From an uncultured delta proteobacterium (GTDB lineage Bacteria; Myxococcota_A; Polyangia; Polyangiales; Polyangiaceae): a stretch of 64,000 nt of DNA. The notes under the pieces were generated by a model. That model worked only from the letters and a program-made list of their open reading frames with translations, was not told the DNA's origin and ran no database searches. Shown in pieces: positions 35,676 through 55,180 of this stretch; within the stretch, counting starts at the first letter, position 1, and every line of letters begins with the position of its first letter. Both the position numbers and the translations under genes were made by a program. The DNA is taken from assembly GCA_963731595.1 (NCBI GenBank), contig CAVSWE010000003.1, forward strand, positions 172,948-236,947, given 5' to 3'.

Positions 35676-36377
35676 GTGCGACAGGCAGTGATCCTCGCGG
35701 GCGGGCTCGCGACGCGGATGCGGCCTCGGACGCTCAGCGTGCCCAAATTCCTGCTCGACGTGGCGGGTCGGCCGTTCGCGGATTGGCAGCTCGAGATGCT
35801 TGCAAACTGCAAGTACGACGACGTCGTCGTCTGCATCGCCCACCTCGGGGAGGAGGTGCGCGCCCACGTTGGCGACGGTGCGCGGTTCGGCCTGCGTGTC
35901 CGTTACGCGGAGGAGGGGCCGAAGCTGCTCGGCACGGGCGGCGCGCTCCGCGCCGCGGCGTCGCTACTCGACGAGAGCTTCCTCGTGACCTACGGCGACA
36001 GCTATTTGCCGTTCGATTACGGGGCGCCGCTGGACGAGCTGCGCGCTCACGACGACTGCGACGGCGTGATGAGCGTCTTCAAGAACGACGGCAAGTGGGA
36101 CGCCTCGAACGTGCGGACCGACGGGGTCTGGGTGCTCGCCTACGAGAAGGGTACGCACGAACGGGCGTTCGACCACATCGACTACGGCGCGATCGCCCTG
36201 CGCCGCGCGGCCGTGCTCGAGCTGCCGGAGGCGACGCCGTGCGGGCTCGACCAGCTCCAGACGAAGCTGGCCGCCGCTCGGCGCTTGCGGGCGCACGTCG
36301 CGCGTGAGAGGTTCTACGAGATCGGCTCGCCGGAAGGGCTTGCCGCGCTCGAGCTACGTTTGCAGGAAACGCGATGA
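35676..36377 (+). CDS. hddC: D-glycero-alpha-D-manno-heptose 1-phosphate guanylyltransferase (HddC-like sugar-phosphate nucleotidyltransferase).
   Basis: N-terminal AVILAGGLATRMRP...LLGTGGAL NTP-transferase signature. About 230 aa. First gene of a four-gene string with overlapping stops and starts. Confidence 0.8.
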   Translation: MRQAVILAGGLATRMRPRTLSVPKFLLDVAGRPFADWQLEMLANCKYDDVVVCIAHLGEEVRAHVGDGARFGLRVRYAEEGPKLLGTGGALRAAASLLDESFLVTYGDSYLPFDYGAPLDELRAHDDCDGVMSVFKNDGKWDASNVRTDGVWVLAYEKGTHERAFDHIDYGAIALRRAAVLELPEATPCGLDQLQTKLAAARRLRAHVARERFYEIGSPEGLAALELRLQETR

Positions 36378-37369
36378 TCGTCTCACGTGCGCCGGTGCGC
36401 TTCTCTCTCGGTGGTGGCGGCACCGATTTACCCAGCTACTCGCGGGAGCACGGCGGGTTTCTCGTCGCCGCTGCGATCGACAAGTACGTCAGCTTGTGCG
36501 TCGCCCAGCGATTCCACGAGAACTATCGCCTCGCGTACTCGAAGACCGAGCAGGTCGAGTCCGTCGACGCGATCGAGCACCGCATCTTCCGCGAGGCGAT
36601 CCGCTTCATGAAGCCGGGCCGATTCCTCGAGCTGCACAGCCTCGCGGACATACCCTCCAACACCGGGCTCGGCAGCTCCTCCAGCTTCACGGTGGCGCTC
36701 CTCAACGGCCTGCACGCGTTCAAGCGCGACTACGTGAGCGCGCGGCAGCTCGCCGACGAGGCGTGCGGCATCGAGATCGACGTGCTCAAAGAGCCGATCG
36801 GCAAGCAGGACCAGTACATCGCGGCGTTCGGCGGCATCACGGCGTTCACGTTCGAGAAGGACGGATCGGTCGGCGTCGAGCGTCTGCCGGTGAAGGAGGA
36901 GGTCATCGACGAGCTCGAGGCGCGTCTGCTCGTGTTCTACTCGGGCGTGGAGCGCGCCGCGTCGAAGGTGCTCGCCGAGCAGGCCAAGATGGTCACGACG
37001 AACAAGAACGACGCCGTCGCGAGGATGCACCGCATCAAAGAGATGGGCTACGAGACGAAGAAGCTCCTGCTCGACGGCGACCTCGATCGCTACGGCGATC
37101 TCTTGCACGAGCACTGGATGAACAAGCGCAAGCTTGCGTCGAGCATGACCGACTCGGTCATCGACGAGCACTACGAGACCGCGCGCAGAGCGGGGGCGCT
37201 CGGCGGCAAGCTGATGGGCGCTGGCGGGGGCGGCTTCTTCGTCTTCTACGTGCGGCCGACCGAACGCCGTTCGGTCTACGAGACCATGCTCGGACGCGGC
37301 TTGCGGCCCTTGCGGTTCCGCTTCGACTTCGACGGCGCGCGCATCGTCGCCAACTTCCATCGTTCCTGA
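36374..37369 (+). CDS. hddA: D-glycero-alpha-D-manno-heptose 7-phosphate kinase (HddA, GHMP kinase).
   Basis: MIVSRAPVRFSLGGGGTDLPSY N-terminus and GHMP motif PSNTGLGSSSS. The ATG overlaps the hddC stop (ATGA). Confidence 0.85.
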   Translation: MIVSRAPVRFSLGGGGTDLPSYSREHGGFLVAAAIDKYVSLCVAQRFHENYRLAYSKTEQVESVDAIEHRIFREAIRFMKPGRFLELHSLADIPSNTGLGSSSSFTVALLNGLHAFKRDYVSARQLADEACGIEIDVLKEPIGKQDQYIAAFGGITAFTFEKDGSVGVERLPVKEEVIDELEARLLVFYSGVERAASKVLAEQAKMVTTNKNDAVARMHRIKEMGYETKKLLLDGDLDRYGDLLHEHWMNKRKLASSMTDSVIDEHYETARRAGALGGKLMGAGGGGFFVFYVRPTERRSVYETMLGRGLRPLRFRFDFDGARIVANFHRS

Positions 37370-37376
37370 GGTCGCC

Positions 37377-37976
37377 ATGTCTTCGTTCACTCAAACGTTC
37401 CTCGCGGAGACGGCGCAGATCGTCTCCACCATCGACGCCGACGCGATCGAAGCCGTCGCCGACGGCCTCGCCGCGGTGCGCGCGGGCGGGGGCCGCCTCT
37501 TCATCCTCGGCGTCGGCGGCTCGGCCGGCCACGCGAGCCACGCGGTCAACGACTTCCGGAAGATCTGCGGCTTCGAGGCCTACGCCCCGACGGACAACGT
37601 GTCCGAGCTCACGGCGCGTACGAACGACGAGGGATGGGACACGACGTTCATCGAGTGGCTGAAGACCTCGCGCCTCGGGAGCGAGGACGCGCTCTTCATC
37701 TTCTCCGTCGGCGGCGGCAACAAGGAGAAGAACGTCTCGGTGAACCTCGTGCGCGCGATCGATCTCGCGAAGGAGCGCGGCGCGAAAGTGTTCGGCGTCG
37801 TCGGTCGCGACGGCGGGCACACCAAGCGCAGCGCCGACGCGTGCGTGCTCGTGCCGGTCGTCGCCGACGCGCGTATCACGCCGCACACCGAGGGGTTCGC
37901 CGCGGTCGTCTGGCACCTGCTCGTCAGTCACCCGAAGCTGCAGATCGCGGCGACCAAGTGGGAAAGCACGAAGTGA
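37377..37976 (+). CDS. gmhA: Sedoheptulose 7-phosphate isomerase (GmhA, SIS domain).
   Basis: SIS-domain motifs LFILGVGGSAGHASH and DALFIFSVGG; 199 aa. Confidence 0.9.
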   Translation: MSSFTQTFLAETAQIVSTIDADAIEAVADGLAAVRAGGGRLFILGVGGSAGHASHAVNDFRKICGFEAYAPTDNVSELTARTNDEGWDTTFIEWLKTSRLGSEDALFIFSVGGGNKEKNVSVNLVRAIDLAKERGAKVFGVVGRDGGHTKRSADACVLVPVVADARITPHTEGFAAVVWHLLVSHPKLQIAATKWESTK

Positions 37977-38575
37977 CGAAAGGGGTCATCCTCGACCGCG
38001 ACGGTACGCTCGTGGACGTCGTGCGCGACGAGGAGACCGGCGTCATCACGACGGCGTTTCATCCGTCGCAGCTTCGCCTCCTGCCGGGCGCGCTCGAAGG
38101 ACTGCAGAAGCTCCAATCCGCTGGGTTCGTGCTCGCCATCGCGAGCAATCAACCAGGGCCGGCGAAGGGCCATTTCTCTCGCGACGCCGTGACGAAGACC
38201 AACGCCGCGCTCGTCGCGATGCTCGCGCGCGAAAACGTGCAGATTGCAAAGGTCGTCGTGTGCATGCACCACCCGATCGGCGGCCCGGGCGGCGACGCGT
38301 CGCTCGTGGGGCCGTGCGCGTGCCGCAAGCCCAAGCCCGGCATGCTCCTCGAGATCGCGGAGGCTCTCGAGCTCGACCTCGAGCGTTCGTGGATCGTGGG
38401 CGACACGTCCTCGGACGTCGCGGCGGGTCGCGCCGCCGGGGTCCGCTCTGCGCTCGTGTTCGACCGGAACCGTTGCGAGCTCTGCCCGCTCCGCGGCGGC
38501 CCAGGCGTTTTGCCCGACGCGCAAGGCGCGACGGTGGCGGCGGTCGCGGACGAAATCACTCGTTTGGCGTGCTAG
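37973..38575 (+). CDS. gmhB: D-glycero-D-manno-heptose 1,7-bisphosphate phosphatase (GmhB, HAD family).
   Basis: HAD motif ILDRDGTL, GmhB zinc motif CMHHP...CACRKPKPGML, and WIVGDTSSD. The GTG overlaps the gmhA stop. Confidence 0.85.
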   Translation: MTKGVILDRDGTLVDVVRDEETGVITTAFHPSQLRLLPGALEGLQKLQSAGFVLAIASNQPGPAKGHFSRDAVTKTNAALVAMLARENVQIAKVVVCMHHPIGGPGGDASLVGPCACRKPKPGMLLEIAEALELDLERSWIVGDTSSDVAAGRAAGVRSALVFDRNRCELCPLRGGPGVLPDAQGATVAAVADEITRLAC

Positions 38576-38586
38576 TGTCCGCGCGC

Positions 38587-40767
38587 ATGAGCGGAAAACG
38601 CCGCGTCGAGCGCGTGGCCGATGCCCTCGCGTTTGCGGCGACGGCCTGGTTCGCGTTCACGGCATTTTGGGGAATCAACGCTCAACCCCATGCGGGCCAC
38701 ATCGGCTCCGCGGGCGCCGCGATCGCCATGACCGCGGAGAATTCGATCCGCTGGCACTCGTGGTATCCGCTCTCCGATTATTACGGCACGACCAACCCGT
38801 TTCCTCAGGGTGCGTACTGCCATCACCCGTTCGGCTGTTTCTGGATCAGTGAGATCGCGGTTCGGCTCTTCGGCCACGCCGACTTCGTCGCGAATCTTCC
38901 GTCCGCGATCATGAGCGCGCTCACGCCGCCGCTGCTTTATTGGACCGGCAAGCGCGCGTGGGGCCCGCTCCCCGGCGCCGCCGCGGCGATCGCGTTCGTG
39001 ACGCTGCCCATCACCGTGGGTTTTTCGATCTTCCACAACCTGGAAGTGATGACGATCTTCGGCGCCGTCCTGTTCTTCTGGGGCCACGGCAAGTTCCTCG
39101 AGACGCGGCGCGGGCGCGATCTCGCGTGGTCCCTCGTCGGCGCCTCGATTGCCGTGTCCGGCGACTGGGTCGGGTACGTCATCCTGGCCGGCCTCCTCGG
39201 CTGGGCTTTCCTTCGAGCGTTCGTCCTGCCGGCGTGGATGACGCCGCCTGTTCGCGTGGCGCAGTACCACCGCTGGTGGGCGCTCTCGGTCGCGCTCGCG
39301 GTGGGCTCGCTCGTGCTCTGGATCGCGATGTTCCAGCACGCCGACAAGCTCACCGACTGGATTGCCTCGGCGCAGGGCAGAAGCGGCGGCGCGGACGAGA
39401 AGCTCTCGGCCGTGTTGGAGGCGCGAAAGACCTGGATCGATTTCTCCTTCACGCCGTACGCGATCCTCGTCGGCAAGCTCGCCGCGCCGCTCGCCATCGT
39501 CCGTCTCGTCTACTTTCGCCGCGACGCCGAGATGTACTCGGTGGCGATGCTGTTCGGCGCGACGGTGCAGTATCTCGTCTTCAAGCAGGGCGCGGACATT
39601 CACATTTTCTGGCCGCACTATTTCGGCGCTTATTACGCGTACGCGTGCGCGCAGCTCGTTGCCACGGCCGGTGGGGTGACGCGCTGGGCCGCCCGGCGCT
39701 TCGCGCCGAATGCGGTTCGAAGCCCTGAGGTCGCCGTCTCGCTCTGCGCGCTCTTCCTCGCGACCGCGCCGCAGACACCCGACGCCGTCCGATCCCTGCG
39801 CGTGTGGCGCGAGTCGGCCGGGAGGTACGACGAGAAGGGTGTGCTCTATCGTAGCCACGCCGACCTCCTCTTCGTCGTGAAGAAGGTGCTCCGGCCCGAG
39901 ATCCATCGAGGCGAAAAGCTCGGCGTCGAGCCCGGAGTCAGCTGGGGCTGGGAGCACCAATGGGCGCTCGAAGGCATGGCCGAGACGGCGTCGTCGCCGT
40001 CGAACGCCCATCCCTATTGGCTCGCGCGCGCCAGCGCGTTGGGCGCCGATCAGCTCAAGACGTTGGCGCAGAAATACCATCTTCGCATCTACGGCGACGC
40101 GGTGATCGTGAAGCGCGGAGAACGTCAAGCGCCGGTCGACGCGTACGCGATCGAGGAGCGCGAGCCCGGCTGGATCGGCTGGATGTTCACGTACAACACC
40201 GAGCCGGTTCGCACGATTTCGGAGCAGCCCGACCCATTCGAGACGTGGGAGTGGCGGTATCATCTCGGCCAGCCGGCGGAGCGGCCGACGCAGAAGCCTC
40301 ACACGCTCGAACAGATCCGCATCGGTTACAACGCCGCGGTCGCGAGTCACGACGACCCCGCCGCTGCCAAGCTCCTCGAGGCCCTCCGCGACGGCATCGA
40401 TCGCACTGTCGAGGCTCATTTCGACGAGGGCAACGAGCTGATGGGCGTCCGCTTGGTGCACGGCGTCCGCCCGCGGATCGAGGTTTATTTTCAGGCGGGC
40501 GGCCCCACGGCCTCCGACACCAAGCTCACGATTCGCTCGGACGTCGTAGCCAAAGCCAAGCTCAGCCTGATTCCCCCGAGCCCGGTCGAGTGCGATCTCG
40601 CGTATCCACCCTCGCTGTCGACCAAGCTCTGGCAGCGTGGTTTCGTGTACAAGTTCGTAGCGCCGCTCCACCACCGCATCGGAGAGGAGCGGTATTGGGC
40701 TGCATGGGCCGGCGGACCACGTCGTCTGCACGGAGACCCGAAGATCGATTTGGCTTACGTGGAATGA
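38587..40767 (+). CDS. Large polytopic membrane protein with a C-terminal ~350 aa soluble domain (GT-C-like architecture; putative lipid-linked-sugar glycosyltransferase).
   Basis: About 11 N-terminal TM helices, with acidic/aromatic residues in the first loop, then a hydrophilic domain (726 aa). No exact family assignable by eye. Confidence 0.6.
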   Translation: MSGKRRVERVADALAFAATAWFAFTAFWGINAQPHAGHIGSAGAAIAMTAENSIRWHSWYPLSDYYGTTNPFPQGAYCHHPFGCFWISEIAVRLFGHADFVANLPSAIMSALTPPLLYWTGKRAWGPLPGAAAAIAFVTLPITVGFSIFHNLEVMTIFGAVLFFWGHGKFLETRRGRDLAWSLVGASIAVSGDWVGYVILAGLLGWAFLRAFVLPAWMTPPVRVAQYHRWWALSVALAVGSLVLWIAMFQHADKLTDWIASAQGRSGGADEKLSAVLEARKTWIDFSFTPYAILVGKLAAPLAIVRLVYFRRDAEMYSVAMLFGATVQYLVFKQGADIHIFWPHYFGAYYAYACAQLVATAGGVTRWAARRFAPNAVRSPEVAVSLCALFLATAPQTPDAVRSLRVWRESAGRYDEKGVLYRSHADLLFVVKKVLRPEIHRGEKLGVEPGVSWGWEHQWALEGMAETASSPSNAHPYWLARASALGADQLKTLAQKYHLRIYGDAVIVKRGERQAPVDAYAIEEREPGWIGWMFTYNTEPVRTISEQPDPFETWEWRYHLGQPAERPTQKPHTLEQIRIGYNAAVASHDDPAAAKLLEALRDGIDRTVEAHFDEGNELMGVRLVHGVRPRIEVYFQAGGPTASDTKLTIRSDVVAKAKLSLIPPSPVECDLAYPPSLSTKLWQRGFVYKFVAPLHHRIGEERYWAAWAGGPRRLHGDPKIDLAYVE

Positions 40768-41408
40768 ACCAACACATGGACCGAGAGAAGTCGTTCGGAC
40801 AGTACGCCGAGCCCAACGCCGTCGACCGCTTCGGCATCGCGCTCTCGCGCGCTCGAATTCGCCGCTCCGTCGGCAAGTTCGCTGGCAAGCGCATCGCGGA
40901 CATCGGCTGCGGTTTCCACGCGCTCGTCGTGCGCGGGTTCCTCGGCGAGGTCGAGTCGGCGACGCTGATCGACCTCGCGATCTCCGACGAGCTCAAGGCG
41001 CACACGCGTGTTCACGCCATCGAAGGCGAGCTGCCCGGCGTGCTCGAGCAGATCCCCGACGGGAGCCTCGACGTCGTCGTCTGCAACAACGTGCTCGAGC
41101 ACCTGTGGGACCCCGCCGTTGCCGTACGACATTTCCGCCGCATGCTGCGACCCGAAGGGGTCGCGCTGCTCAATGTCCCCTCGTGGCGCGGGAAGTACTT
41201 CCTCGAGCTCGCTTCATTCAAGTTGAACGTGGTCCCGCGGATCGAGATCGACGACCACAAGCACTATTACTCGCCGCACGAGCTCTGGACGCTGCTCGTG
41301 CAGGGCGGTTTTCGCCCGAGCGAGATCAAGAGCTGCCACACGCACAAGTTCGGCCTGAACACGTACGCCGAGTGCCGGGCGAGCGCGGACGTCGCGGCCA
41401 AGCCGTAG
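40764..41408 (+). CDS. Class I SAM-dependent methyltransferase (214 aa).
   Basis: IADIGCGFHALV (motif I) and VLEHLWDP...LRPEGVALLNVP. The ATG overlaps the upstream stop (ATGA). Confidence 0.75.
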   Translation: MNQHMDREKSFGQYAEPNAVDRFGIALSRARIRRSVGKFAGKRIADIGCGFHALVVRGFLGEVESATLIDLAISDELKAHTRVHAIEGELPGVLEQIPDGSLDVVVCNNVLEHLWDPAVAVRHFRRMLRPEGVALLNVPSWRGKYFLELASFKLNVVPRIEIDDHKHYYSPHELWTLLVQGGFRPSEIKSCHTHKFGLNTYAECRASADVAAKP

Positions 41409-41416
41409 CCCGTGCT

Positions 41417-42550
41417 ATGGAGCGGCCGATGAACGCCTTGACACGCTTGTTGCGCGCGTCGTGGGGACGGCCACGGCACGTGCTCGGCATCGGAAACCTC
41501 GACTGGTCCCAGCTCGACGGCGTCACGGCCGTCGACGACGAGAAGCTCGCCGCGACGAAGGGGAACTTCGACGCTGCGGTCGTCGAGCTGCCTGCGTCCG
41601 ACGAGGGCGCGCTCGAGCGACTGCGCGCGTGCGTCGGCCGTCTCTCGGACGGAGGACACGTGCTTCTTCCGGTCGCGCACCCGGTGTCATTCGCCGAAGG
41701 ACAACGCTTGCGCCGCGCCTTCGACCGCGCGCGCGAGCGAACGGTTCGCCTCGCCGAGGCCGCGGGCCTCGAGGTCTTGCGCGTCGACGTGCGATTGCAC
41801 GCCGCGGTCGTCGTCGCCCGCACCGCGCCGAAGCCCGGCAAGCTCTCGCTCACCGTCGGCATGCTCACGTTGAACGAGCAGCAAAGCGTCGAGCGGATGA
41901 TGGACGAGATCCATCAATACGCGCCCGACGCGAGCATCCTGCTCGTGGACAGCTCGAGCGACGAGACGCCGAACCTCGCGCGCGCCAAAGGCGCCGAGGT
42001 GATTCGGCAACTGCCGGCGCGCGGCCACGGTCCGGCGATGGAGCAGCTCATGTACGCGGCCGCCGATCGCAGCGACGCGCTCGTCTACATCGACTGCGAC
42101 TTCACCTACCCGACCGAATACATCCCGCGCATCCGCGAGCTCCTCGAGCAAGGCGCCGACGTCGTCAACGCGACGCGCACGCACAAATACCCGAAGGCGA
42201 TGCCCGTGCCGAACTTCATCGCGAACCGCGTGTTCGCCGCGACGGCTCAGATCGTCCACGGGATCCCAACGACCGACTTGCACAGCGGCCTGCGCGGGTA
42301 TCGCTCCTCGGTGATCAGAGCGTTTTCGTTCAGCGGGGAACAGGACGCGCTGCCGGTGACGACCTTGATCCTGCCGGCGCGTTCGAGCTACCGCGTCGTC
42401 GACCTTCCCATCCCCTACGCCGAGCGGGAGGGCATCTCCAAGCTGGCGAAGTTTCGGGGCACCGCGTGGACGTTCGCGCGCGTCGCAACGAGCCTCGGTC
42501 ACGGCCGGCGCGTGCGCCGCGGGCGCAACTACTCACACGTTGGACGCTGA
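41417..42550 (+). CDS. GT2-family glycosyltransferase (DPM1/polyprenol-phosphate sugar synthase-like) with a ~130 aa N-terminal extension.
   Basis: LTVGMLTLNEQQSV...ILLVDSSSDETPNLA...DCDFTYP (GT2 DxD region). Confidence 0.75.
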   Translation: MERPMNALTRLLRASWGRPRHVLGIGNLDWSQLDGVTAVDDEKLAATKGNFDAAVVELPASDEGALERLRACVGRLSDGGHVLLPVAHPVSFAEGQRLRRAFDRARERTVRLAEAAGLEVLRVDVRLHAAVVVARTAPKPGKLSLTVGMLTLNEQQSVERMMDEIHQYAPDASILLVDSSSDETPNLARAKGAEVIRQLPARGHGPAMEQLMYAAADRSDALVYIDCDFTYPTEYIPRIRELLEQGADVVNATRTHKYPKAMPVPNFIANRVFAATAQIVHGIPTTDLHSGLRGYRSSVIRAFSFSGEQDALPVTTLILPARSSYRVVDLPIPYAEREGISKLAKFRGTAWTFARVATSLGHGRRVRRGRNYSHVGR

Positions 42551-43489
42551 CCCGAAGATCTCGCCGGCGATTTCACGCACCGCGCGCTCGACGGCTTGAT
42601 CGGAGGTGTTGTGCATCCGAAAGCCGAGGGCCGCCAGCTTGTCGGGTCGCAGTCGCGAGCGGGCGACGTCGCCCGGCCACCCCTGGGCGCTCGTGCCGAA
42701 GGCGATGCGGGCGCCCGGGTTGGGCGAGCTGGCGACGCACAGCTCGGCGATGCGACGCACGGAGGTCGTGTCCGGCGGCGCGAGGTTGTAGATCGCGGGG
42801 TTCTCGCCGCTCGCGTGGTCGAGGACGAAGAGGATCGCCTCGGTGCAGTCGCTGACGTGGAGGTACGGCTTGCTCTGCCGGCCGTCGCCGAGGACGTCGA
42901 GGCAATCGGGCTTCTGCTGGAGCTTCTTGCAGAAGTCGACGATCGCGCCGTGCGTTCCCCGCGCACCCACCACGTTTCCGAATCGGCAGATGTAAGATCC
43001 GAGGCCGAAGCACTCCGAATAGGCCGCGATGAGCGCCTCGCCCGCGAACTTGCTCGCCCCGTAGAGCGAGATCGGCAAATGTCCGAGATCGGCCTCGCCG
43101 CACGGCTGATCGGTGTTGCCGTACACGGTTCCGCTCGAGGAGAAGACGAACTTGCCGACGTGCGTGAGCCGCGCAGCCTCGAGCGAGTTGTACGTCGCGA
43201 TGGTGCCTTGCTCGAGGTCGAGGCGCGTTCGCTCGAGCCCCCAGCGGGCCTCGGGGTTCGCCGCGAGGTGAAATACGACGTCATGGCCGGCCATCGCCGC
43301 CTGGAGCGCGTCGAGCTCGAGCGCGTCGCCGACGACCAACTTGGCCGCGCCGCTCGCGAGGTGTGCCGCTACGAATTCCCTCTTGCCGATCGACAGATTG
43401 TCGAAGATCGTCACCGGGCCGCGGGCGACGAGCCGGTCGACCAAGTGGCTTCCGATGAACCCTGCACCGCCGACGACGAACGACCGCAT
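42533..43489 (-). CDS. NAD-dependent epimerase/dehydratase (extended SDR; nucleotide-sugar epimerase-like).
   Basis: MRSFVVGGAGFIGSHLV Rossmann motif and catalytic YGASK (YxxxK). Confidence 0.8.
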   Translation of the reverse strand: MRSFVVGGAGFIGSHLVDRLVARGPVTIFDNLSIGKREFVAAHLASGAAKLVVGDALELDALQAAMAGHDVVFHLAANPEARWGLERTRLDLEQGTIATYNSLEAARLTHVGKFVFSSSGTVYGNTDQPCGEADLGHLPISLYGASKFAGEALIAAYSECFGLGSYICRFGNVVGARGTHGAIVDFCKKLQQKPDCLDVLGDGRQSKPYLHVSDCTEAILFVLDHASGENPAIYNLAPPDTTSVRRIAELCVASSPNPGARIAFGTSAQGWPGDVARSRLRPDKLAALGFRMHNTSDQAVERAVREIAGEIFGSASNV

Positions 43490-46865: not shown

Positions 46866-46880
46866 GCTCGCGGTCGAGCG

Positions 46881-47867: not shown

Positions 47868-49105
47868 GCTACCGCGGGATCGCGGAGTGCCGCATCTGCG
47901 GCGGCTCGAACCTCGTCACGGTCCTCGATCTCGGCCAGCAAGCGCTGACGGGCGTCTTCCCGGACGCGAAGAACCCCGAGGTCGAAGTCGCGCCGCTCGA
48001 CCTCGTGAAATGCGACGGGCCTGGCTCGTGCGGGCTCGTGCAGCTGCGGCACACGTGCGAGCCGTCGCAAATGTATGGAGCGAACTACGGCTACCGCTCG
48101 GGGCTCAATCTCTCCATGGTCGAGCACTTGCGCGCCAAGGTCGCGCGCCTCGTCGAGCTCGCGCCGCTGGCCCCTGGCGACGTCGTGCTCGACATCGGCA
48201 GCAACGACGGGACGACGCTCTCGTCGTATCCGAGCACGGCGAAGCTCGTCGGCATCGACCCCACGGCGGCGAAATTCCGCCAGTATTACCCCGAGCACGT
48301 CACCGTCGTGCCGGACTTCTTCTCGTCCGCTCGCTTCCTCGATGCGAGCGGCGGCGCGCGCGCGAAGATCGTCACGTCGATCGCGATGTTCTACGACCTC
48401 GAGCGCCCGATGGACTTCATGCGCGACGTGTTTGCCTCGCTCGCCGACGACGGCGTCTGGCACTTCGAGCAGAGCTATCTCCCGTCGATGCTCGACGCGC
48501 TCTCGTACGACACGATCTGCCACGAGCACCTCGAGTACTACGCGCTCGCGCAGATCCAGTGGATGGCCGAGCGCGTCGGTTTTCGGATCGTCGACGTCGA
48601 GCTCAACGACGTCAACGGCGGCTCGTTCGCGATCACCGCGCGGAAAGGTCGCAACGGCGCCGCTTCGCCGCGCGTCGCGGAGCTCGCGGCCGCGGAGAGG
48701 ATGCGCGCGCTCGACACCCTCGCGCCCTACGAGAAATTCGCGTCCGACGTCGCGCACCACCGCGACGAGCTGCGCGCCCTCCTCGGGCGTCTGCGCGACG
48801 ACGGCAAGCGCGTCTTCGGCCTCGGCGCGTCGACGAAGGGCAACGTCCTCTTGCAGTATTGCGGCTTCGGCGTGCGCGAGCTCGCATGCATCGCCGAGGT
48901 CAACCCCGACAAGTTCGGCCACGTCACCCCCGGCACGAACATCCCGATCGTATCCGAGGCGGACGCGCTCGCGCGCGCCCCGGATTATTTCATGGCGCTC
49001 CCGTGGCATTTTCGGAGCACGCTGCTCCGCGCGCACGCGAGCTTCCTCGAGCGCGGCGGCAAGATGATCTTTCCGTTGCCGCGTCTCGAGATCGTCGGGG
49101 CATGA
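47864..49105 (+). CDS. Sugar C-methyltransferase (TylCIII/NovU-like: zinc ribbon, SAM methyltransferase domain, C-methyltransferase C-terminal domain).
   Basis: N-terminal CRICGG...C...C zinc-binding region. [10 protein letters not shown] (motif I). A C-terminal domain typical of NDP-hexose 3-C-methyltransferases. ATGA overlaps at both ends. Confidence 0.8.
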
Positions 49106-49993
49106 AGCGAGCGGCCGTCATCGGCTGCGCGGGGCAAGACGGACGCCTCCTCCGCGAGCGCCTCTCGAAGGAAGCGGAGGTCGTCGGCGTGGATCTCGGC
49201 GACGTCGACCTCGCGGAATCCGGCGGCGACGACCGCGTGGATCGAGCGCATCGCGCCGGACGAGCTCTACTACCTGGCCGCGCACCATCACTCGGCCGAG
49301 GCTCTTCCGGACGACGCGAGCGAGCTCCGCGCGTGCACCGCCGTACACGTGACGTCCTGGGTGAACGTGCTCGACGCGCTCCGGCGGCACGCGCCCGCGT
49401 GCCGCGCGTTCTACGCCGGCTCGTCGCACATGTTCGGCCGTCCCGCGGTTTCGCCTCAAAACGAGACGACGCCGTTCGCACCACGAAGCCCGTACGCGAT
49501 CACGAAGGTCGCGGGCGCGCACGTCGCCGCGCTCTACCGTGACCGCGGGATGCACGTTTCGGTCGGCATCCTCTACAATCACGAGTCGGCGCTTCGCGGC
49601 CCGCAGTTCGTCTCGCAACGAATCGTCCGCGGTGCGAAGCGCGCGGCAAACGATCGCACCTTCGAGCTCGTGCTCGGCGACCTGTCCGCCGTAGTCGACT
49701 GGGGCTGGGCGCCCGACTATGTCGACGCGATGGTTCGCATTCTCGCGCAGCCGGCTCCGGACGATTACGTCGTCGCCACCGGGACGCCGCACTCCGTCCA
49801 GGACTTCGTGGCGAGCGCGTTCGCCTGCGCGGGCGTCGACTGGCGTTCGCGGGTGGTGGAGGATCCGACCATCGTCAAGACGAAGGCGCTCCCACTCGTC
49901 GGCGACTCGACGAAGCTCCGCGCACGTACCGCCTGGGCGCCTACGGTGACGTTCGAGGAAATGGTGAAGCAGCTCGTGCAAGGTGGGCAGTGA
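49105..49993 (+). CDS. GDP-4-keto-6-deoxy-sugar reductase/dehydratase family (Rmd/DmhB-like), with an apparent +1 frame shift near 49235.
   Basis: N-terminal [17 protein letters not shown] in frame 1. The rest is in frame 2 (...PDELYYLAAHHHSAE...SPYAITKVAG...). Confidence 0.75.
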
Positions 49994-50964
49994 CGTGAAC
50001 CTCGATCGGGTGGCGAGCGTGGCGACCGAGTGGCTCCTCCAGAAGGACGCGGAGACACGTGCGAGGGCGCGCGAGAGCAATCCGGAGCACGCGCGCTTGG
50101 TCCAGCTATGTCTCCGTGGCGCTGACGAACGACTCGACCTCCTCGGCGACGTCACGGAGCCCGTAGTCGCGCTCGCGTCATCCGCCGCGTTGCGCGAGGC
50201 GACGCTGCTGCTGCTCGAAGCGACGGGTTCGCGGAGCGGGCCGCTCGACGCCGTCGCAGAGCTCCGTCGCACCTGCGAAGAGCTCGCCGTTCCCGCGGGG
50301 ACATGCAGCGCAGCAGCGCGCTTGCTCGTCGACGACCCGCTCGCGCTCTCGGGTCTGGCGTCAGCGGATTTCGGTCCGTTCTGCGCTCGCCCTCGAGCAC
50401 GTCGCACGCGCGCTCCGCGCGCACCTCGACGGCCGAACCGCGTCGCGCATCGTGCGTTCGCGGCGCTTGCGCGTGGCGCTCCTCGCGGCGCTGGCCCTGT
50501 ACGGCGTCTTCGCGCTCGGGCTCGCCGTGTTCGGGCGCAAGAACATCGCACGCGGCAAGCCCGTCCTCATGAGCAGCGTCGACGGGGCCAGTGCCCCACC
50601 GCAGATGCTCGTCGACGGCGTTCGGTCCGCCGACACCAAGCCGGGCTCCCCGAAGCCGGACGTCGTCTACACGCGCCACGAGGCGCATCCCTGGGCGCTC
50701 GTCGATCTCGGGCGCGAATACAACATCCGGGAGGTGCGCCTGTACAATCGCGACGACGGAGGCTTCGACGACGGCCTCCCGTACATCGTCGAGTTCTCGT
50801 TCGACGGCCACACGTTCTGGGAAGTCGGCCGCTGCGAGACGCACTTCGGGAGTTGGTGGATCGACCCGCCCTGCCGTGTGCCGTGCGACCGGCGCACCAC
50901 GCGCTTCGTCCGCGTCAGCGCGACGGGTTACCTCGCGCTCAGCGAGATCGAGGTGTTCCCTTGA
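49983..50964 (+). CDS. Second membrane-anchored F5/8 type C (discoidin) domain protein, paralog of 43488..44366, with an apparent +1 frame shift near 50395.
   Basis: GTG start overlapping the upstream stop. N-terminal ~135 aa in frame 0. TM LRVALLAALALYGVFALGLAVFG plus discoidin ...WALVDLGREYNIREVRLYNRDDGG...FSFDGHTFWEV...RFVRVSATGYLALSEIEVFP in frame 1. Confidence 0.55.
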
Positions 50965-52715
50965 ACCGCCTCCGGCTCGCCGAGTGGCAGCGTCCTTTGC
51001 TCGCCATCTTTCTGACGCTGCTCACGCTGCGCATCACGGCCTATTTCTTCGCGATCCTGAACGACAACTTTCTCCACGCCGGCCTCGAGTACGACGAGAG
51101 CTATTTCGTGTGGTGCGGGTGGATGATCAACAAGGGCTTCGCGCCGTACCGCGACTTCCTCGAATTCAAGCCGCCGATGACGTTCATCACGCACGCCATG
51201 GCGCTGAAGCTCTTCGGGTTTCATGAGTTCGGCTACCGGAAGTTCTTCGCCTATTTTCCGCTGGGGTCCCTCCTCGCGCTGCAGCTCGCGATGTTGTCGC
51301 GCCGAATCGACCGGTGGCTCGCGCTCGCCCTCACGATCGCGTTCATCCAGATCTGGCTGAACCCCACCTTTCACGACGTGGCGCTCTCGGACTCGGAGTC
51401 GATCGGGCTCGCGTACTACCTGCTCGGGGTCGCCTGCCTGTTCGCGCGCACGCGCTTTCGAACGACGCTCCAGTGGTTGGGTGGGGCGATGTTCGCCTGC
51501 TCGATCTTTTCGAAGGAGCCGTTCTTGCCGTGCGTGGGCATGACGTGGATCAGCCTTTTCCTGCTGGGGGACGAGCCCGGGACGTTCGCCGTGCGTGCGC
51601 GCCGCTACGCGGGCCGGACGATCGGCGGCGGGCTCGTCGTGCTCGCCCTGCTGTGCGCTTACATGATCCCGAGCGGCGCGATGCGCGCGTACCTCGACGT
51701 CCTGCACCGGTACTTCCACTTCTACCGCGACGTGAAGGAGTCGTATTGCGTCGTCCTCGGGCGCTTTCATCCGACGGTGCCGTTGAACGACCTCCACATG
51801 CAGTGGCGGCAGGCGCGCGCCTCGTTCGCGAACTCGACGAACCTCGGCTTCCTCGCGCCGTTCGCCGCAGCCTCGATCGTGTTCATCTGGAAGCGCTCGC
51901 GCGTCCTGTTCGCGACCGTGCTCATCGGCGTAGGTTCGGCGCTCTGGGCCGTGACGGCGAGCAACTGCCAGTGGGCGCACTACTACACGATGACGATGAG
52001 CGGTCTCTTCTTCGCGCTCGTCGTGGGCCTCGATTCGCTCACGCCGCATTTCCGCGCGATGAGCCGCGCGTCGCGGGTGTTTCTCTCGATCGCCATGCTC
52101 GGCACCGTGCTCCTGCACGACTGGGTTCGCTTCGACGCCGAACGCGACAAGTACGGCACGCGGACGGCGCAGGAGTTCAAATCGAAGGAGCCCGTCCCCG
52201 GCGTGTTCGAGGCCGTGCAGCGGTACACGACGCCGGCGGAACGCATCGTCACGACCGGTGCGCCGAGCCTGTACATGCAAGTCGATCGGATCGACGGCAT
52301 GCGCGAATCCACCACCGACGACGAGGTGCTCGGCTTCTACAGTGGCGCCACGGACGAGGAAAAGCTCAGCAGCGTTAGAGCCGAGCTACTTCGTAGCCGC
52401 CCCAAGCTGATCATCCTCGACTCGTCGCCTTCCGGCGACGGGCGCAAGCGCCGCTGGCGCGCCGCGCTGTGGGACCCCTTCTTGCACGACTTCCATTATC
52501 GCGAGATCAAACCTCGCATTTACGTCCGACCGGATCTGATCAGTCCGGTCGGCGCGCGACGACGACGGCCTGCACGAAGAAATCCTTCGGCCCGAAGTCG
52601 TACGAGACGAGCTCGAGGCCGCCCGAGGCGAGGAGCTTCGAAGCCTCGCTCTTGGAGTGCACCAGCGACGGCTCCGGCGGGTGCAGTCGGACGTTCTTCG
52701 CGAGCACGTCGTTGA
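50961..52715 (+). CDS. GT-C-fold glycosyltransferase (ArnT/PMT-like, GT39/GT83 family); 3' end uncertain.
   Basis: TTG start overlapping the discoidin stop. First periplasmic loop LEYDESYFVWCGWMINKGFAPYRDFLEFKPPMTFI (DE motif and EFKPP, as in ArnT/PMT). More than 10 TM helices. The last ~60 aa are Arg-rich, so the true stop may lie nearer 52530. Confidence 0.7.
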   Translation: MNRLRLAEWQRPLLAIFLTLLTLRITAYFFAILNDNFLHAGLEYDESYFVWCGWMINKGFAPYRDFLEFKPPMTFITHAMALKLFGFHEFGYRKFFAYFPLGSLLALQLAMLSRRIDRWLALALTIAFIQIWLNPTFHDVALSDSESIGLAYYLLGVACLFARTRFRTTLQWLGGAMFACSIFSKEPFLPCVGMTWISLFLLGDEPGTFAVRARRYAGRTIGGGLVVLALLCAYMIPSGAMRAYLDVLHRYFHFYRDVKESYCVVLGRFHPTVPLNDLHMQWRQARASFANSTNLGFLAPFAAASIVFIWKRSRVLFATVLIGVGSALWAVTASNCQWAHYYTMTMSGLFFALVVGLDSLTPHFRAMSRASRVFLSIAMLGTVLLHDWVRFDAERDKYGTRTAQEFKSKEPVPGVFEAVQRYTTPAERIVTTGAPSLYMQVDRIDGMRESTTDDEVLGFYSGATDEEKLSSVRAELLRSRPKLIILDSSPSGDGRKRRWRAALWDPFLHDFHYREIKPRIYVRPDLISPVGARRRRPARRNPSARSRTRRARGRPRRGASKPRSWSAPATAPAGAVGRSSRARR

Positions 52716-54009
52716 GCATCCAGTGAGCGAGGCCGAGCACCTTGACGCTCGTGGCCTGCGCGTGCGGCCAGAAGACGACCATCTTGCCGCCCGGCTTGAG
52801 CACGCGCCGGATCTCGCCGAACGCGCGACCCAGCTCCTCGTGCGTGAAGTGCTCGACCACGCCGAGGTTGTATGCGCCGTCGAAGGTGGCCTCCTCGAAG
52901 GGCAGGTCGAAGATGCTCGCGTGCGTCACCTGCGCCTCCGGGTTCTCGCGCAGATACGTGCGGAGAGCCGACTCGGAGATGTCCACGGCGACGATGTCCG
53001 CGCGATCGTGCAGGTCCACGTCGACCTGCCCGCTGCCGCAGCCCGCGTGGAGAAGGCGCGAGCCCTGGCCAAACTCGCGCTCGATGGTTTCCTGCAGGCG
53101 ACGCTTGATGACCGTGTTGCGGTAGAGCGTGGCGATGACGTCGTACGTGGCCGCGGTCGCGCGCTCTTTCTTGTCCCAGTATTCGTTCCAGTTCTGCACG
53201 TCGACGAGCTCGGAATTTATCTCCGGAGCGCCCGCCAGCCTGAAGCGAGACGGCGACGTCACGTTGGTGAGCCAGAGCGAGCCGAGCGTCTTCACGCTGC
53301 GCGCGACCTCGACCGCGCTCATCTTGGAGCTGCCGTACGTTCGCGCCGGCAGCGCGAGCGGCACCTCGGCGATCGAGAAGCCGTTGTTGTGGAGGATGAA
53401 CAGGCTCTCGAAGAAGAACGCGTACCCGCGCGACCGCACGAGATCGAACACCGCCCGCGGGATCGTCTCGAGGTTGTAGACGCGGAACGCGCCCGTCGCG
53501 TCCTGCGGCATCCCGAGGACGTTCTTCGTGAGTGCGTGGCCGAGCGTCGTCAGTGATTTGCGGAAGAGCGTCCAGCCCGGCAAGCTGTTCTCGGCGAGGT
53601 AACGCGAGCCGACGACGGCGTCCGAGGTCTCTGCGCGCGCGAGAAACATCGGGATGGCGTCGGGCGAGTGCGTGAAGTCGCCGTCGAGCGTGACCAGCCG
53701 ATGGTAACCGTGATCGTACGCGTAAGCGATGCCGGCGACGTGGGCGCTGCCGATGCCGCTCTTCGCCGGGCGATGAATGACCGACAGCCGCGCGTGCTTG
53801 CGCGCGAGCTGGTCGAGGAGCTCCCCGGTCCCGTCCGGCGACGAGTCATCCATGAAGACGATGTCGGCATCGAGGCCGAGCGCGAAGAGCTGATTGCACA
53901 TCGGCTCCACGTTGTTCCGCTCGTTGTAAGTGGGAATGAAGATGAGTGTTTTCTTCGCGCTGACCAAGCCGGACCTCGCCCGAAGGTGGAGCTTACGACG
54001 ACCGCACAA
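52540..54009 (-). CDS. Bifunctional GT2 (DPM1-like polyprenol-phosphate glycosyltransferase) and class I SAM methyltransferase fusion.
   Basis: N-terminus LIFIPTYNERNNV...VFMDDSSPDGT...TLDGDFTHSP (GT2). C-terminus LLHAGCGSGQVDV...VLKPGGKMVVFWP (methyltransferase). Confidence 0.8.
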   Translation of the reverse strand: MCGRRKLHLRARSGLVSAKKTLIFIPTYNERNNVEPMCNQLFALGLDADIVFMDDSSPDGTGELLDQLARKHARLSVIHRPAKSGIGSAHVAGIAYAYDHGYHRLVTLDGDFTHSPDAIPMFLARAETSDAVVGSRYLAENSLPGWTLFRKSLTTLGHALTKNVLGMPQDATGAFRVYNLETIPRAVFDLVRSRGYAFFFESLFILHNNGFSIAEVPLALPARTYGSSKMSAVEVARSVKTLGSLWLTNVTSPSRFRLAGAPEINSELVDVQNWNEYWDKKERATAATYDVIATLYRNTVIKRRLQETIEREFGQGSRLLHAGCGSGQVDVDLHDRADIVAVDISESALRTYLRENPEAQVTHASIFDLPFEEATFDGAYNLGVVEHFTHEELGRAFGEIRRVLKPGGKMVVFWPHAQATSVKVLGLAHWMLNDVLAKNVRLHPPEPSLVHSKSEASKLLASGGLELVSYDFGPKDFFVQAVVVARRPD

Positions 54010-54031
54010 CGCGAGCCAGCGTCAGAATCGA

Positions 54032-54562
54032 TCAGCAAAAGACGTGGATCGTCACCGTGAAATCGCCGCTGTTGTCCCCGAAGGCCTGCCTCTGATCGTT
54101 GAATCCAAGGAAGAGGCGGCCGCTCGTCGACGCAATCTCGTCGTACGACGTCCCCACGAAGCCTGGACCGTCGCCGCTCGTGCCCTCGGCGACCGGAACG
54201 CCCGTGTCGAGGGCTGCCGTGCCGCCGACCTTGCCGATGAGGCTGACGATGACGGCGTCGGGCAGCACCGCCGTCGGGAAGAATCGTTGGCCGTCGAAAT
54301 TGCCCCCGTTCGCGTCGCAGGACTGACTGCCCATGTCGCCGTAACGCACCGTACCGGACGCCGCGAGGACGAGCCGCTCTCCCGCGACCACGTCGAGGCC
54401 GGTGTCGACCCAGGGCGCCTCCGACGACACTTGCAGCGTGATCTCGCGCGTCTCGCACGCGCCGTCGGCGCCAGCCTCCGACGACAGGCGACCGCCGAGC
54501 TCGGTTCGGGCGCCGCACGCCGACGCAGCGGCGAAGAACGCGATGGTCAGTGCGCGCAGCAT
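54032..54562 (-). CDS. Small secreted lipoprotein (176 aa), hypothetical.
   Basis: MLRALTIAFFAAASACGARTEL signal/lipobox; Gly/Asp-rich beta-type composition. Confidence 0.55.
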   Translation of the reverse strand: MLRALTIAFFAAASACGARTELGGRLSSEAGADGACETREITLQVSSEAPWVDTGLDVVAGERLVLAASGTVRYGDMGSQSCDANGGNFDGQRFFPTAVLPDAVIVSLIGKVGGTAALDTGVPVAEGTSGDGPGFVGTSYDEIASTSGRLFLGFNDQRQAFGDNSGDFTVTIHVFC

Positions 54563-54613
54563 GCTCGGAGCTTACCGTGGCGGCGCGTGCTGCCAAGCCA
54601 TACGCTGGACGAC

Positions 54614-55180
54614 GTGCCGCGCTTACGGACCGTCGTCGCGCTGTCGGTGCTCGGATGCGGGGCGAGGACCGAGCTCGATGTGCCGGGCGCCGGCGACGCC
54701 GCGCTCGCCGAGGCCCAGGCCCCACGCGACGCAAGCCAGGACGTGGCGCTCGACGCGCCCGCCGCCTGCGATTTCGGGAACATCACCAGCAATCCCTTCG
54801 GCGCCACCGTCTCTTGGAACGGCGGCGCCCCGCTCCCCGCCGGGCACTACCGCGTGACGTACGTCGACGGGTGCATGAAGTATTCGAACGGCCAGGGTTG
54901 GACCGTGAACGCTTACGCGAACGGGCCCGACACGCTCTGGGTCGTCGGCAGCGGAGCGCGGCTCGCGCCGGCTCCCGGCACCGTCGGCTTTCTCGTCGGG
55001 CAGGGTGGGTTCGCGAGCTTCGACGCGTGCGTCGCGGCGAACGTCTCGCAAGACGCGCCGCTCGAGCTCGACTTCGCCGGCGGGGCGCTGGGCCTCGAGC
55101 TCGCCGACGATCCGTACGCCGACAACGTCGCCGGCGAGAGCGGCCGAAGCCCCACGTATCGCCTCTCGTCGTGCCCCTGA
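54614..55180 (+). CDS. Small secreted lipoprotein, divergent paralog of 54032..54562.
   Basis: Inferred GTG start gives MPRLRTVVALSVLGCGARTEL. It shares the CGARTEL post-lipobox motif with the divergent neighbour. C-terminal part of track ORF 53930..55180. Confidence 0.5.
   Translation: MPRLRTVVALSVLGCGARTELDVPGAGDAALAEAQAPRDASQDVALDAPAACDFGNITSNPFGATVSWNGGAPLPAGHYRVTYVDGCMKYSNGQGWTVNAYANGPDTLWVVGSGARLAPAPGTVGFLVGQGGFASFDACVAANVSQDAPLELDFAGGALGLELADDPYADNVAGESGRSPTYRLSSCP

Follow-up and report, generated by a model that had tools for sequence, protein, structure and literature searches.

A myxobacterial glycan locus with two predicted lipid-linked sugar donors, one of them possibly a heptose

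To our knowledge, and in the literature searched, heptoses enter bacterial glycans only by way of cytoplasmic heptosyltransferases of the Leloir type, with ADP- or GDP-heptose as donor, and a gene cluster of a soil myxobacterium of the family Polyangiaceae raises the question of whether a heptose may also be delivered outside the cytoplasm, from a polyprenyl phosphate. The cluster occupies 21 kb (~33.0–54.0 kb) of a stretch of 64,000 nucleotides, hereafter the window (positions 172,948 to 236,947 of contig CAVSWE010000003.1, assembly GCA_963731595.1), and it combines genes of probable GDP-heptose synthesis with genes for two cytoplasmic glycosyltransferases of family GT2 and four polytopic membrane proteins. 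Our analysis suggests, with a probability of roughly 0.6, that the locus encodes a three-component-type extracytoplasmic glycosylation system with two donor modules. In such a system a GT2 enzyme would load one sugar on polyprenyl phosphate in the cytoplasm, the lipid-linked sugar would be flipped, and a membrane glycosyltransferase of the GT-C fold would transfer it in the periplasm.

Because the G+C content of the window is ~69%, raw lists of its open reading frames (ORFs) consist mostly of spurious frames; genes were called from third-position GC and a frame plot, and annotated with Pfam and NCBIfam. All gene classes listed in a preliminary description of this DNA, which had been made from the letters alone, were recovered at or near the positions given there. 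Its limits for the locus, 35676–55180, shift at both ends: the conserved block starts at ~33024, as judged from a soil contig of the JGI (L009; related loci are numbered with the prefix L), which adds a GT-C gene at 33024–34666 and a methyltransferase gene at 34703–35488, and it ends at ~53967–54009 with a GT2-methyltransferase fusion, as judged from the Polyangiaceae metagenome-assembled genome GCA_036488725.1 (L008). The comparison of gene neighbourhoods that the preliminary description had proposed shows that gene order is kept in both of these relatives at protein identities of 64–94%, and the arrangement is thus not due to chance. The proximal part, module H (33.0–46.9 kb), holds the heptose cassette, a transaldolase, a short-chain dehydrogenase/reductase (SDR), the glycosyltransferase GT2a, three GT-C proteins and the S-adenosylmethionine (SAM) methyltransferases MT1 and MT2, together with a discoidin-domain protein:

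33024–34666, plus strand: memA, the fourth GT-C protein, of ~546 residues; frame broken at ~33357; conserved beside MT1 in L009
34703–35488, plus strand: SAM methyltransferase MT1 (Pfam Methyltransf_11, 4.9e-20); 87% identity in L009
35676–36377, plus strand: HddC-like sugar-1-phosphate nucleotidyltransferase (Pfam NTP_transferase)
36374–37369, plus strand: HddA-like D-glycero-D-manno-heptose 7-phosphate kinase of the GHMP family (top NCBIfam match HddA, 1.3e-48, full length)
37377–37976, plus strand: GmhA-like sedoheptulose-7-phosphate isomerase with SIS domain (Pfam SIS_2)
37973–38575, plus strand: GmhB-like heptose 1,7-bisphosphate 7-phosphatase of the HAD-IIIA type (NCBIfam PRK08942, 1.5e-33)
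38587–40767, plus strand: GT-C1, a PMT_2-family protein with a C-terminal soluble domain of ~330 residues (Pfam PMT_2, 1.5e-9; 38.7 bits against a cut-off of 26.1)
40776–41408, plus strand: SAM methyltransferase MT2 (Pfam Methyltransf_23 and Methyltransf_11); 65–88% identity in L008 and L010
41429–42550, plus strand: GT2a, a degenerate methyltransferase domain of ~140 residues followed by a DPM1/ArnC-like GT2 domain
42533–43489, minus strand: GalE-like SDR, a nucleotide-sugar epimerase or reductase (Pfam Epimerase, 2e-41)
43455–44366, plus strand: single-pass membrane protein with a C-terminal F5/8-type-C (discoidin) domain (Pfam F5_F8_type_C, 7e-9)
44353–46194, plus strand: YfhO-like GT-C protein of 613 residues, with a C-terminal beta-sandwich and a terminal transmembrane (TM) helix in its predicted fold
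46209–46865, plus strand: transaldolase/FSA-type aldolase of 218 residues (Pfam TAL_FSA, 2.7e-35)

The distal part, module M (46.9–54.0 kb), consists of Gmd, a 3-C-methyltransferase, an Rmd-like reductase, a second discoidin protein, GT-C#3 and the fusion protein GT2-MT:

46881–47867, plus strand: GDP-mannose 4,6-dehydratase, Gmd (TIGR01472, 510.5 bits against a cut-off of 415)
47864–49105, plus strand: nucleoside diphosphate (NDP)-4-keto-6-deoxyhexose 3-C-methyltransferase (Pfam Methyltransf_13, _23 and _14)
49102–49993, plus strand: Rmd-like 4-ketoreductase of ~296 residues; frame broken at ~49216; 40% identity to Gmd
49995–50964, plus strand: second single-pass discoidin protein (Pfam F5_F8_type_C and F5_F8_type_C_2); frame broken at ~50372; 4-nt overlap with GT-C#3
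50961–52538, plus strand: GT-C#3, of 525 residues (YDES at 51090–51101, EFKPP at 51162–51176)
52540–53967, minus strand: GT2-MT, a DPM1-like GT2 domain (Glycos_transf_2, residues 23–151) with a C-terminal SAM methyltransferase domain (Methyltransf_11, residues 320–412)

By sequence comparison, both GT2 enzymes are closest to synthases of polyprenyl-phosphate sugars (DPMS, ArnC and the archaeal Dol-P-hexose transferase), the class to which the preliminary description had assigned them, and all their NCBIfam matches lie below the equivalog cut-offs. GT2a matches the model for dolichyl-phosphate hexose transferase at 4.2e-41, over 199 of 213 profile positions, followed by AglJ (3e-19) and ArnC (2e-9); among solved structures it matches ArnC (1.7e-7) and the DPMS 5mlz (1.3e-4), and it carries the motifs TLNE (41867–41878), DCDF (42092–42103) and EREGISKL (42422–42445). 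GT2-MT matches the Pyrococcus DPMS 5mlz at 1.5e-20 and ArnC at 2e-9 among structures, and PpgS, ArnC, PgfS and AglJ among NCBIfam models; its motifs are TYNE, DDSSPDGT and DGDF. The GT2 and GT-C genes are encoded together, and this pairing is kept in L001, L004, L006, L008 and L010. Orthologues of GT2-MT always lie beside a GT-C#3 gene and near genes for Gmd, the C-methyltransferase and Rmd (L001, L004, L008). GT2a is the sole cytoplasmic glycosyltransferase within module H.

The coupling of a methyltransferase to a GT2 domain recurs in both enzymes. The N-terminal 140 residues of GT2a (41429–41850) form a class-I methyltransferase domain from which part of motif I has been deleted, and the MT2 gene lies directly upstream; this domain aligns with intact-looking methyltransferase domains of the orthologues in L006 (8267–9718, minus strand), where it is fused to GT2, and L010. 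The three SAM methyltransferases counted in the preliminary description correspond, inside its limits, to MT2, the GT2-MT domain and the degenerate N-terminal domain of GT2a, with MT1 lying just outside them.

All four polytopic proteins are GT-C glycosyltransferases and not transporters. The preliminary description had counted three large GT-C-like proteins and had named a transporter identity as a finding that would overturn its reading; Pfam matches and structural models both point to GT-C, transporters appear in the Foldseek searches of the models at a probability of only ~0.1, and the count rises to four with memA, which lies upstream of the start given there. GT-C1 passes the PMT_2 model and has orthologues in L002, L008, L009 and L010. 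PMT_2 is also matched by 9 of 32 members of the memA family (best 5e-10), whose homologue in Labilithrix bears the UniRef name RgtA/B/C/D-like. The 613-residue protein has no significant Pfam match of its own, including to YfhO (PF09586), and its relatives, a family of 445 homologues, match YfhO in 7 of 40 sampled members (best 4.8e-8). Its AlphaFold model (pLDDT 86.9) retrieves only GT-C enzymes among the first 15 Foldseek matches in the PDB: STT3, AglB, ArnT, AftD, Pmt4 and ALG12.

GT-C#3 and the 613-residue protein gave no match to Pfam PMT (PF02366) or PMT_2 (PF13231), even at E values up to 10, and no sequence match to any solved GT-C enzyme; single-sequence searches of solved structures found nothing for GT-C#3 or GT-C1, and a 40-sequence profile found nothing for GT-C#3, so that the fold of the latter was set by structure prediction. 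The AlphaFold model of GT-C#3, built from the family alignment, has a mean pLDDT of 92.6, and the first 28 Foldseek matches in the PDB are all GT-C (AglB, STT3, PglB, ArnT, Pmt4, DPY19, Emb, AftB and ALG9 among them). Its homologues form a clear family, all annotated as hypothetical proteins, with 371 representatives of 50%-identity clusters at E values up to 1e-10 in an exhaustive profile search; 7 of 10 distant relatives match PMT_2. The ArnT/PMT-like loop that had been noticed in one polytopic protein is that of GT-C#3, with its YDES and EFKPP motifs: across 40 homologues D45, E46, P71 and P72 do not vary, E68, F69 and K70 hardly vary, and D45/E46 lie between model helices 10–39 and 72–85, which places them in the first extracytoplasmic loop after TM1. 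Profile-profile comparison, from which GT-C1 was left out, gave a probability below 1% for any mutual relation among the memA, GT-C#3 and YfhO-like families, and these are therefore not recent paralogues.

Two of the GT-C proteins appear to be translationally coupled to the discoidin proteins, for which a role as acceptor-binding partners is suggested by analogy. The first discoidin protein has one TM helix (residues 185–203 of the ORF that begins at 43341), and its gene extends into the 5′ end of the GT-C gene that follows; a discoidin gene is likewise paired with a GT-C gene in L001, L002, L006, L008 and L010. The 5′ ends of the SDR gene (42533–43489, minus strand) and the first discoidin gene (43455–44366, plus strand) overlap as well, by 2 nt in L008, and since no intergenic region separates them their promoters must sit within the neighbouring gene. 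Further proteins of 540–710 residues, with 8–14 predicted TM segments and without a Pfam family, are encoded in L006 (6449–21557), L004 (6081–9995), L010 (14786–16807), L020 (15743–17797) and L011 (2504–6652). Some are paralogues of one another (L004_650 and L010_673 at 64% identity, L004_651 and L006_649 at 34%), and a weak GT87 match is found in L006. These additional polytopic proteins probably represent further undescribed GT-C-like families.

The sugar-building genes of module H include all four GDP-heptose enzyme classes, contiguous at 35676–38575 as one cassette. The best structural matches of the kinase are heptose kinases (3k85, 1e-48; Burkholderia WcbL 4usk, 2e-45; Campylobacter jejuni 4n3o, 5e-34), and the isomerase matches 13 PDB entries, every one of them a phosphoheptose isomerase. 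Four NCBIfam GmhA models match the isomerase at 1e-11 to 1e-14, all under cut-off; the phosphatase passes the HAD-IIIA and histidinol-phosphatase-domain models; and the matches of the nucleotidyltransferase to MurU, mannose-1-phosphate guanylyltransferase and HddC all fall under cut-off. In L010 the transaldolase, presumed to supply sedoheptulose-7-phosphate, remains part of the heptose module, and in many phyla it accompanies the cassette. The SDR, whose top NCBIfam match is GalE (under cut-off), likewise co-travels with the cassette across phyla.

In a kinase scan with one genome per species, cassette, SDR and transaldolase recurred together in many bacterial and archaeal phyla. In a locus of the Ignavibacteria (Candidatus Tepidiaquacella, L041, 8198–17689) they lie by a Bac_transf phosphoglycosyltransferase, a 240-residue GT2 and a GT2-Bac_transf fusion, and the GT2 genes there have a generic Pfam GT2 match only; GT-C proteins are not part of this setting. 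The cassette is therefore a general NDP-heptose module able to feed different types of pathway.

Does GT2a, then, load heptose? The lipid-linked heptose donor proposed in the preliminary description is supported by gene context, from which we infer the sugar of GT2a. Among 32 contigs of 6 kb or longer from a metagenome scan seeded with GT2a, 23 carry heptose-cassette genes, and GT2a was often directly adjacent to them, in the order GT2a-gmhB-transaldolase. In contigs such as L113 and L120, both GT-C1-like and YfhO-like genes are interspersed among the heptose genes, and in L110 GT-C1 homologues are so too. Viewed from the heptose side, the Myxococcota loci L016, L018, L023, L027, L029 and L030 carry YfhO-like or GT-C#3-family genes, and L020 and L011 combine a methyltransferase-GT2 fusion with 13–14-TM proteins that have no Pfam family. 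Weak hits of cassette neighbourhoods in many phyla to a 'DPM-like GT2' hidden Markov model were discounted, the Ignavibacteria locus proving to hold generic GT2 and phosphoglycosyltransferase genes. Our full-text search of the literature found no lipid-linked or polyprenyl-phosphate heptose.

Several observations weigh against this assignment. All four cassette enzymes stay under their NCBIfam equivalog cut-offs (HddA 166 of 600 bits, GmhA 52 of 209, GmhB 116 of 178, HddC 56 of 300), and the nucleotidyltransferase scores higher against MurU than against HddC; the identity of sugar and nucleotide is for this reason only inferred, although the best matches of the enzymes are nevertheless the expected families, in agreement with the structural matches for kinase and isomerase. 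Because a phosphoglycosyltransferase and other GT2 genes adjoin the cassette in Ignavibacteria, the cassette alone does not imply a lipid-phosphate heptose, and Sorangium isolates possess it without these GT2 and GT-C partners. No gene for a GtrA-like or SMR-type flippase was found in the window among ORFs of 80–260 residues with at least three TM segments and coding-type third-position GC, and the intergenic gaps inside the locus are too small for one. A hydropathy scan detected no TM segment in either GT2 enzyme; human DPM1 and mycobacterial Ppm1 also have no TM helix, so TM anchoring is not universal in the class. Finally, GT2a homologues of 50–66% identity have no heptose gene within reach in 9 of the 32 long contigs and in L004 and L006.

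These last homologues favour an alternative in which GT2a loads an ordinary hexose, e.g. mannose from GDP-mannose as Ppm1/DPM1 does, and the NDP-heptose is consumed by Leloir heptosyltransferases encoded elsewhere, for instance to build the lipopolysaccharide (LPS) core or some other glycan. Hexoses are indeed the substrates of the characterised enzymes closest to GT2a, and the genes that adjoin the Ignavibacteria cassette fit such an arrangement too. We nonetheless consider it unlikely. It leaves the heptose of module H beside GT2a as the only cytoplasmic glycosyltransferase, and it sits poorly with the many independent contigs in which heptose genes are interleaved, gene by gene, with those for GT2a and GT-C proteins, and with the presence of heptose genes in most of the long GT2a contigs. 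Moreover, GDP-D-glycero-alpha-D-manno-heptose is the 6-C-extended analogue of GDP-alpha-D-mannose, so that a DPM1-type enzyme would need little change to accept it. A different challenge comes from module M. The preliminary description had wired Gmd, the C-methyltransferase and the Rmd-like reductase to the heptose, which would make the locus a single pathway whose 6-deoxy-C-methyl-heptose feeds all GT-C proteins. Both gene sets are indeed contiguous and mostly co-directional in the window, and known 6-deoxy-heptose pathways employ Gmd and Rmd homologues, the GDP-heptose 4,6-dehydratase 7us5 of C. jejuni being a solved example. This route is very unlikely and was rejected for two reasons, the scores of Gmd and the separate occurrence of the modules elsewhere. 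Gmd lies above the equivalog cut-off for GDP-mannose dehydratase and scores 360–456 bits against GDP-mannose dehydratases in the PDB, compared with 114 bits against 7us5; by these matches it is a canonical GDP-mannose dehydratase, not a heptose dehydratase of the DdahA/WcbK type, and a 6-deoxy C-methylated heptose is thus unsupported (456 versus 114 bits). In a related 7.0-Mb contig (ERZ25039495:contig_8404) the two sets lie 2.3 Mb apart. One, at ~0.29 Mb (L010), holds a PMT_2 GT-C, GT2a, SDR, the heptose cassette, a discoidin protein, a YfhO-like GT-C, a methyltransferase and a transaldolase; the other, at ~2.66 Mb (L001), holds Gmd, C-methyltransferase, Rmd, a discoidin protein, GT-C#3 and GT2-MT, so that each has its own GT2 and GT-C. 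The Gmd module of L004 has no heptose gene in the 21.7 kb covered. The locus thus consists of two modules, and most likely yields two separate lipid-linked sugars. The full-length structural matches of the C-methyltransferase are sugar 3-C-methyltransferases (D-mycarose 3-C-methyltransferase 4rv9 at 4e-58, TcaB9 and 5t64), and Rmd-like orthologues are intact at 296–297 residues in L001 and L008; judged from these families, module M would most likely convert GDP-mannose to GDP-6-deoxy-3-C-methyl-hexose.

Two further explanations dispense with lipid-phosphate donors altogether. Nucleotide-sugar, GT2 and membrane-protein genes are typical of conventional clusters for O-antigen, exopolysaccharide (EPS) or capsule, which assemble on undecaprenyl pyrophosphate, and heptose and C-methyl deoxy-sugars occur in O-antigens (e.g. 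virenose; PMC3539893); the polytopic proteins would then be polymerases, ligases or transporters and the GT2 enzymes Leloir transferases. Neither the locus nor the window holds a gene for a phosphoglycosyltransferase, Wzx, Wzy, Wzz, an ABC exporter or a GT-B enzyme, the structural models match GT-C, and both GT2 enzymes find their best matches among polyprenyl-phosphate synthases. The preliminary description had itself named a standard cluster for O-antigen or EPS as a finding that would refute its reading; this option was accordingly rejected as highly improbable. It is hardly plausible, too, that the GT2 enzymes and methyltransferases build a cytoplasmic solute, such as a polymethylated oligosaccharide or a heptosyl-glycerate comparable to the mycobacterial methylglucose and methylmannose polysaccharides, with the GT-C genes as unrelated neighbours. 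Four methyltransferase genes or domains do stand alongside two soluble-looking GT2 enzymes, and GT2a weakly matches glucosyl-3-phosphoglycerate synthase (1.8e-6); that match is far weaker than the one to Dol-P hexose transferase (4e-41), and the related loci examined all keep GT-C genes as partners of these GT2 genes.

Returning to a three-component-type system with two donors, we propose the following sequence of events. Established here are the families and folds of the proteins, the two modules and the conserved linkage of their genes; the sugar of each GT2, the stage at which methylation occurs, the discoidin role and the acceptor belong to the model. In module H, the transaldolase would provide sedoheptulose-7-phosphate, from which the GmhA-, HddA-, GmhB- and HddC-like enzymes would make NDP-D-glycero-alpha-D-manno-heptose, with GDP as the probable nucleotide. 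The SDR and MT1/MT2 may epimerise and O-methylate this heptose. GT2a would then move it to polyprenyl phosphate, and memA, GT-C1 and the YfhO-like protein with its discoidin partner would hand it to periplasmic acceptors. In module M, Gmd, the 3-C-methyltransferase and the Rmd-like enzyme would yield GDP-6-deoxy-3-C-methyl-hexose, GT2-MT would put this sugar on polyprenyl phosphate and probably O-methylate it on the cytoplasmic face, and GT-C#3 with its discoidin partner would transfer it. Because SAM is absent outside the cytoplasm, and in view of the methyltransferase fusions, O-methylation would take place at or just after the GT2 step. The weakest part of this model is the acceptor. It is most likely a glycan of the cell surface; the number of GT-C proteins and their carbohydrate-binding partners favour this over a protein. 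In its full form, which we hold tentatively and at slightly less than even odds, the model states that soil Polyangia use polyprenyl-phosphate-heptose, a donor so far undescribed, made by a soluble DPM1-like GT2 that accompanies the heptose cassette and drawn on by PMT_2- and YfhO-like periplasmic heptosyltransferases that Pfam at present recognises weakly or not at all, together with a polyprenyl-phosphate-6-deoxy-3-C-methyl-hexose that a GT2-methyltransferase fusion methylates while it is lipid-linked, and that the four GT-C proteins and their discoidin partners build or decorate a methylated envelope glycan largely outside the cytoplasm, as for mycobacterial lipoarabinomannan (LAM) and arabinogalactan but in a diderm.

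If this is true, polyprenyl-phosphate-heptose and GT-C heptosyltransferases would add a sugar class to extracytoplasmic glycosylation. The model also gives a testable role to families of hypothetical proteins, namely GT-C#3 and the YfhO-like family, and the GT2-methyltransferase fusions suggest a route by which sugars may be methylated before export, where SAM is available.

Four genes of the locus are affected by one-base changes in the window. An indel at ~33357 leaves the N-terminus of memA in frame 0 and the remainder in frame 2; another at ~49216 places the N-terminal Rossmann motif of the Rmd-like protein in frame 1 and the remainder in frame 2; a third at ~50372 splits the second discoidin gene, to which the L001 orthologue aligns by tblastn in frames 3 and 1; and an extra C at ~52536 abolishes the stop codon of GT-C#3, whose ORF extends to 52715. 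In a cluster look-up the broken forms came from the source assembly of the window, and other assemblies had intact ones. For memA, intact as 546 residues in another assembly, and for the GT-C#3 stop, identical or near-identical intact versions exist in other assemblies from this organism or one very close to it, and the reading of these two as pseudogenes was rejected; the Rmd-like and second discoidin genes are intact only as orthologues of 72–81% identity. Downstream, the gene for a metallo-beta-lactamase (MBL)/beta-CASP protein (55200–56606) has three frame changes within 56020–56490. Given these three changes and the intact forms elsewhere, the indels of the window are read as assembly errors, not as marks of pseudogenes. 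The source contig resembles an unpolished long-read assembly.

Outside the locus, the window contains housekeeping genes (DsbD, DnaK, TamB, an Omp85 protein, PmbA/TldD, BacA and an extracytoplasmic function (ECF) sigma factor), and the following features lie downstream of it:

54032–54562, minus strand: lipoprotein-like gene, missing from the syntenic L008
~54587–55180, plus strand: lipoprotein-like gene, missing from the syntenic L008
58473–59264: BacA/UppP, an undecaprenyl-pyrophosphate phosphatase (Pfam, 6.8e-70), ~4.5 kb past the end of the locus
59387–60190: ECF sigma factor

The two lipoprotein-like genes are divergent, both products have CGARTEL right after the lipobox cysteine, and one of them has a weak match to a PA-IL-like lectin (7.9e-5). 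Their absence from L008 indicates that the pair is an insertion specific to this lineage, with the glycan locus on one side and the MBL gene on the other. For BacA/UppP and the ECF sigma factor, a link to lipid-carrier supply is possible. Directly upstream of the locus, on the opposite strand, lies a large ORF for a STAND/AAA_16 ATPase (29450–32617, minus strand); a longer ORF in another frame overlaps this region and has a weak C-terminal Trans_reg_C match, and the frame plot suggests a frame change here.

How does the proposed system compare with known ones? In the three-component systems, such as GtrA/GtrB/Gtr* of Shigella and Salmonella and the pentofuranose systems described by Kelly et al. 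(2024), polyprenyl phosphate receives one sugar from a GT2, and a GT-C passes this sugar on outside the cytoplasm (PMC11127046). The myxobacterial locus resembles them in linking GT2 and GT-C genes to sugar-making genes. It differs in the lack of a flippase gene in the window, in having four GT-C and two GT2 genes in one locus, in GT2 enzymes without predicted TM segments that are fused to methyltransferase domains, in the discoidin partners of two GT-C proteins, and in its predicted sugars, a heptose and a 6-deoxy-3-C-methyl-hexose; the word heptose does not occur in PMC11127046. The locus resembles ArnC/ArnT in that both GT2 enzymes have ArnC among their best matches of known structure, and Rhizobium RgtE/RgtA-D in the RgtA/B/C/D-like member of the memA family. 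ArnD acts on Und-P-Ara4FN, that is, on a sugar that is already lipid-linked, and by analogy the sugars here may also be modified while attached to the lipid. ArnC carries C-terminal TM helices, unlike either GT2 of the locus; GT-C#3 and the 613-residue protein have no ArnT/PMT Pfam match, the sugars differ, and lipid A as acceptor is without support here.

The match of GT2-MT to the Pyrococcus DPMS and the PMT_2 score of GT-C1 are points of likeness to Ppm1/DPM1 and PMT. Several GT-C proteins per lipid-phosphate donor, as proposed for the locus, have a parallel in the assembly of lipomannan (LM) and LAM, where several GT-C enzymes are reported to draw on one such donor (PMC3485146). EmbC is reported to combine a GT-C with a lectin-type carbohydrate-binding C-terminal module (PMC3044687), whereas the corresponding module here is a separate single-pass discoidin protein. 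From Ppm1/PMT and the mycobacterial GT-C enzymes the locus is further set apart by its diderm host, by predicted donors other than mannose or arabinose, and by the lack of a MIR domain and of a GT39 Pfam PMT match. YfhO is reported to work with a GT2 that makes C55-P-sugar, as CsbB/YfhO or GtlA/GtlB, in the glycosylation of lipoteichoic acid in Firmicutes (PMC5836110, PMC7389260). The YfhO matches among relatives of the 613-residue protein are reminiscent of that pair; the protein itself has no YfhO score, its host is a diderm without teichoic acid, and the sugar is another one.

The known GDP-heptose systems supply Leloir transferases in the cytoplasm. The cassette has the same four enzyme classes as the GDP-heptose pathways of Aneurinibacillus, Campylobacter and Burkholderia; it differs from them in the additional transaldolase and SDR and in that all four enzymes lie below the equivalog cut-offs, and module H encodes no Leloir heptosyltransferase. 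For the LPS of Coxiella burnetii, PMC3539893 proposes in silico a GDP-mannose route to virenose (6-deoxy-3-C-methyl-gulose) via a 4,6-dehydratase, a C-3 methyltransferase and a reductase/epimerase. Module M holds the same enzyme types, acting on a 4-keto-6-deoxy intermediate derived from GDP-mannose, and its product is predicted to go to GT2-MT and a GT-C, whereas the Coxiella route feeds O-antigen. The mechanism that we propose is itself known. What sets the myxobacterial locus apart is the lack of a flippase gene, the predicted donors, the GT2-methyltransferase fusions, the set of four GT-C proteins, two of them without a Pfam match of their own, and the discoidin partners.

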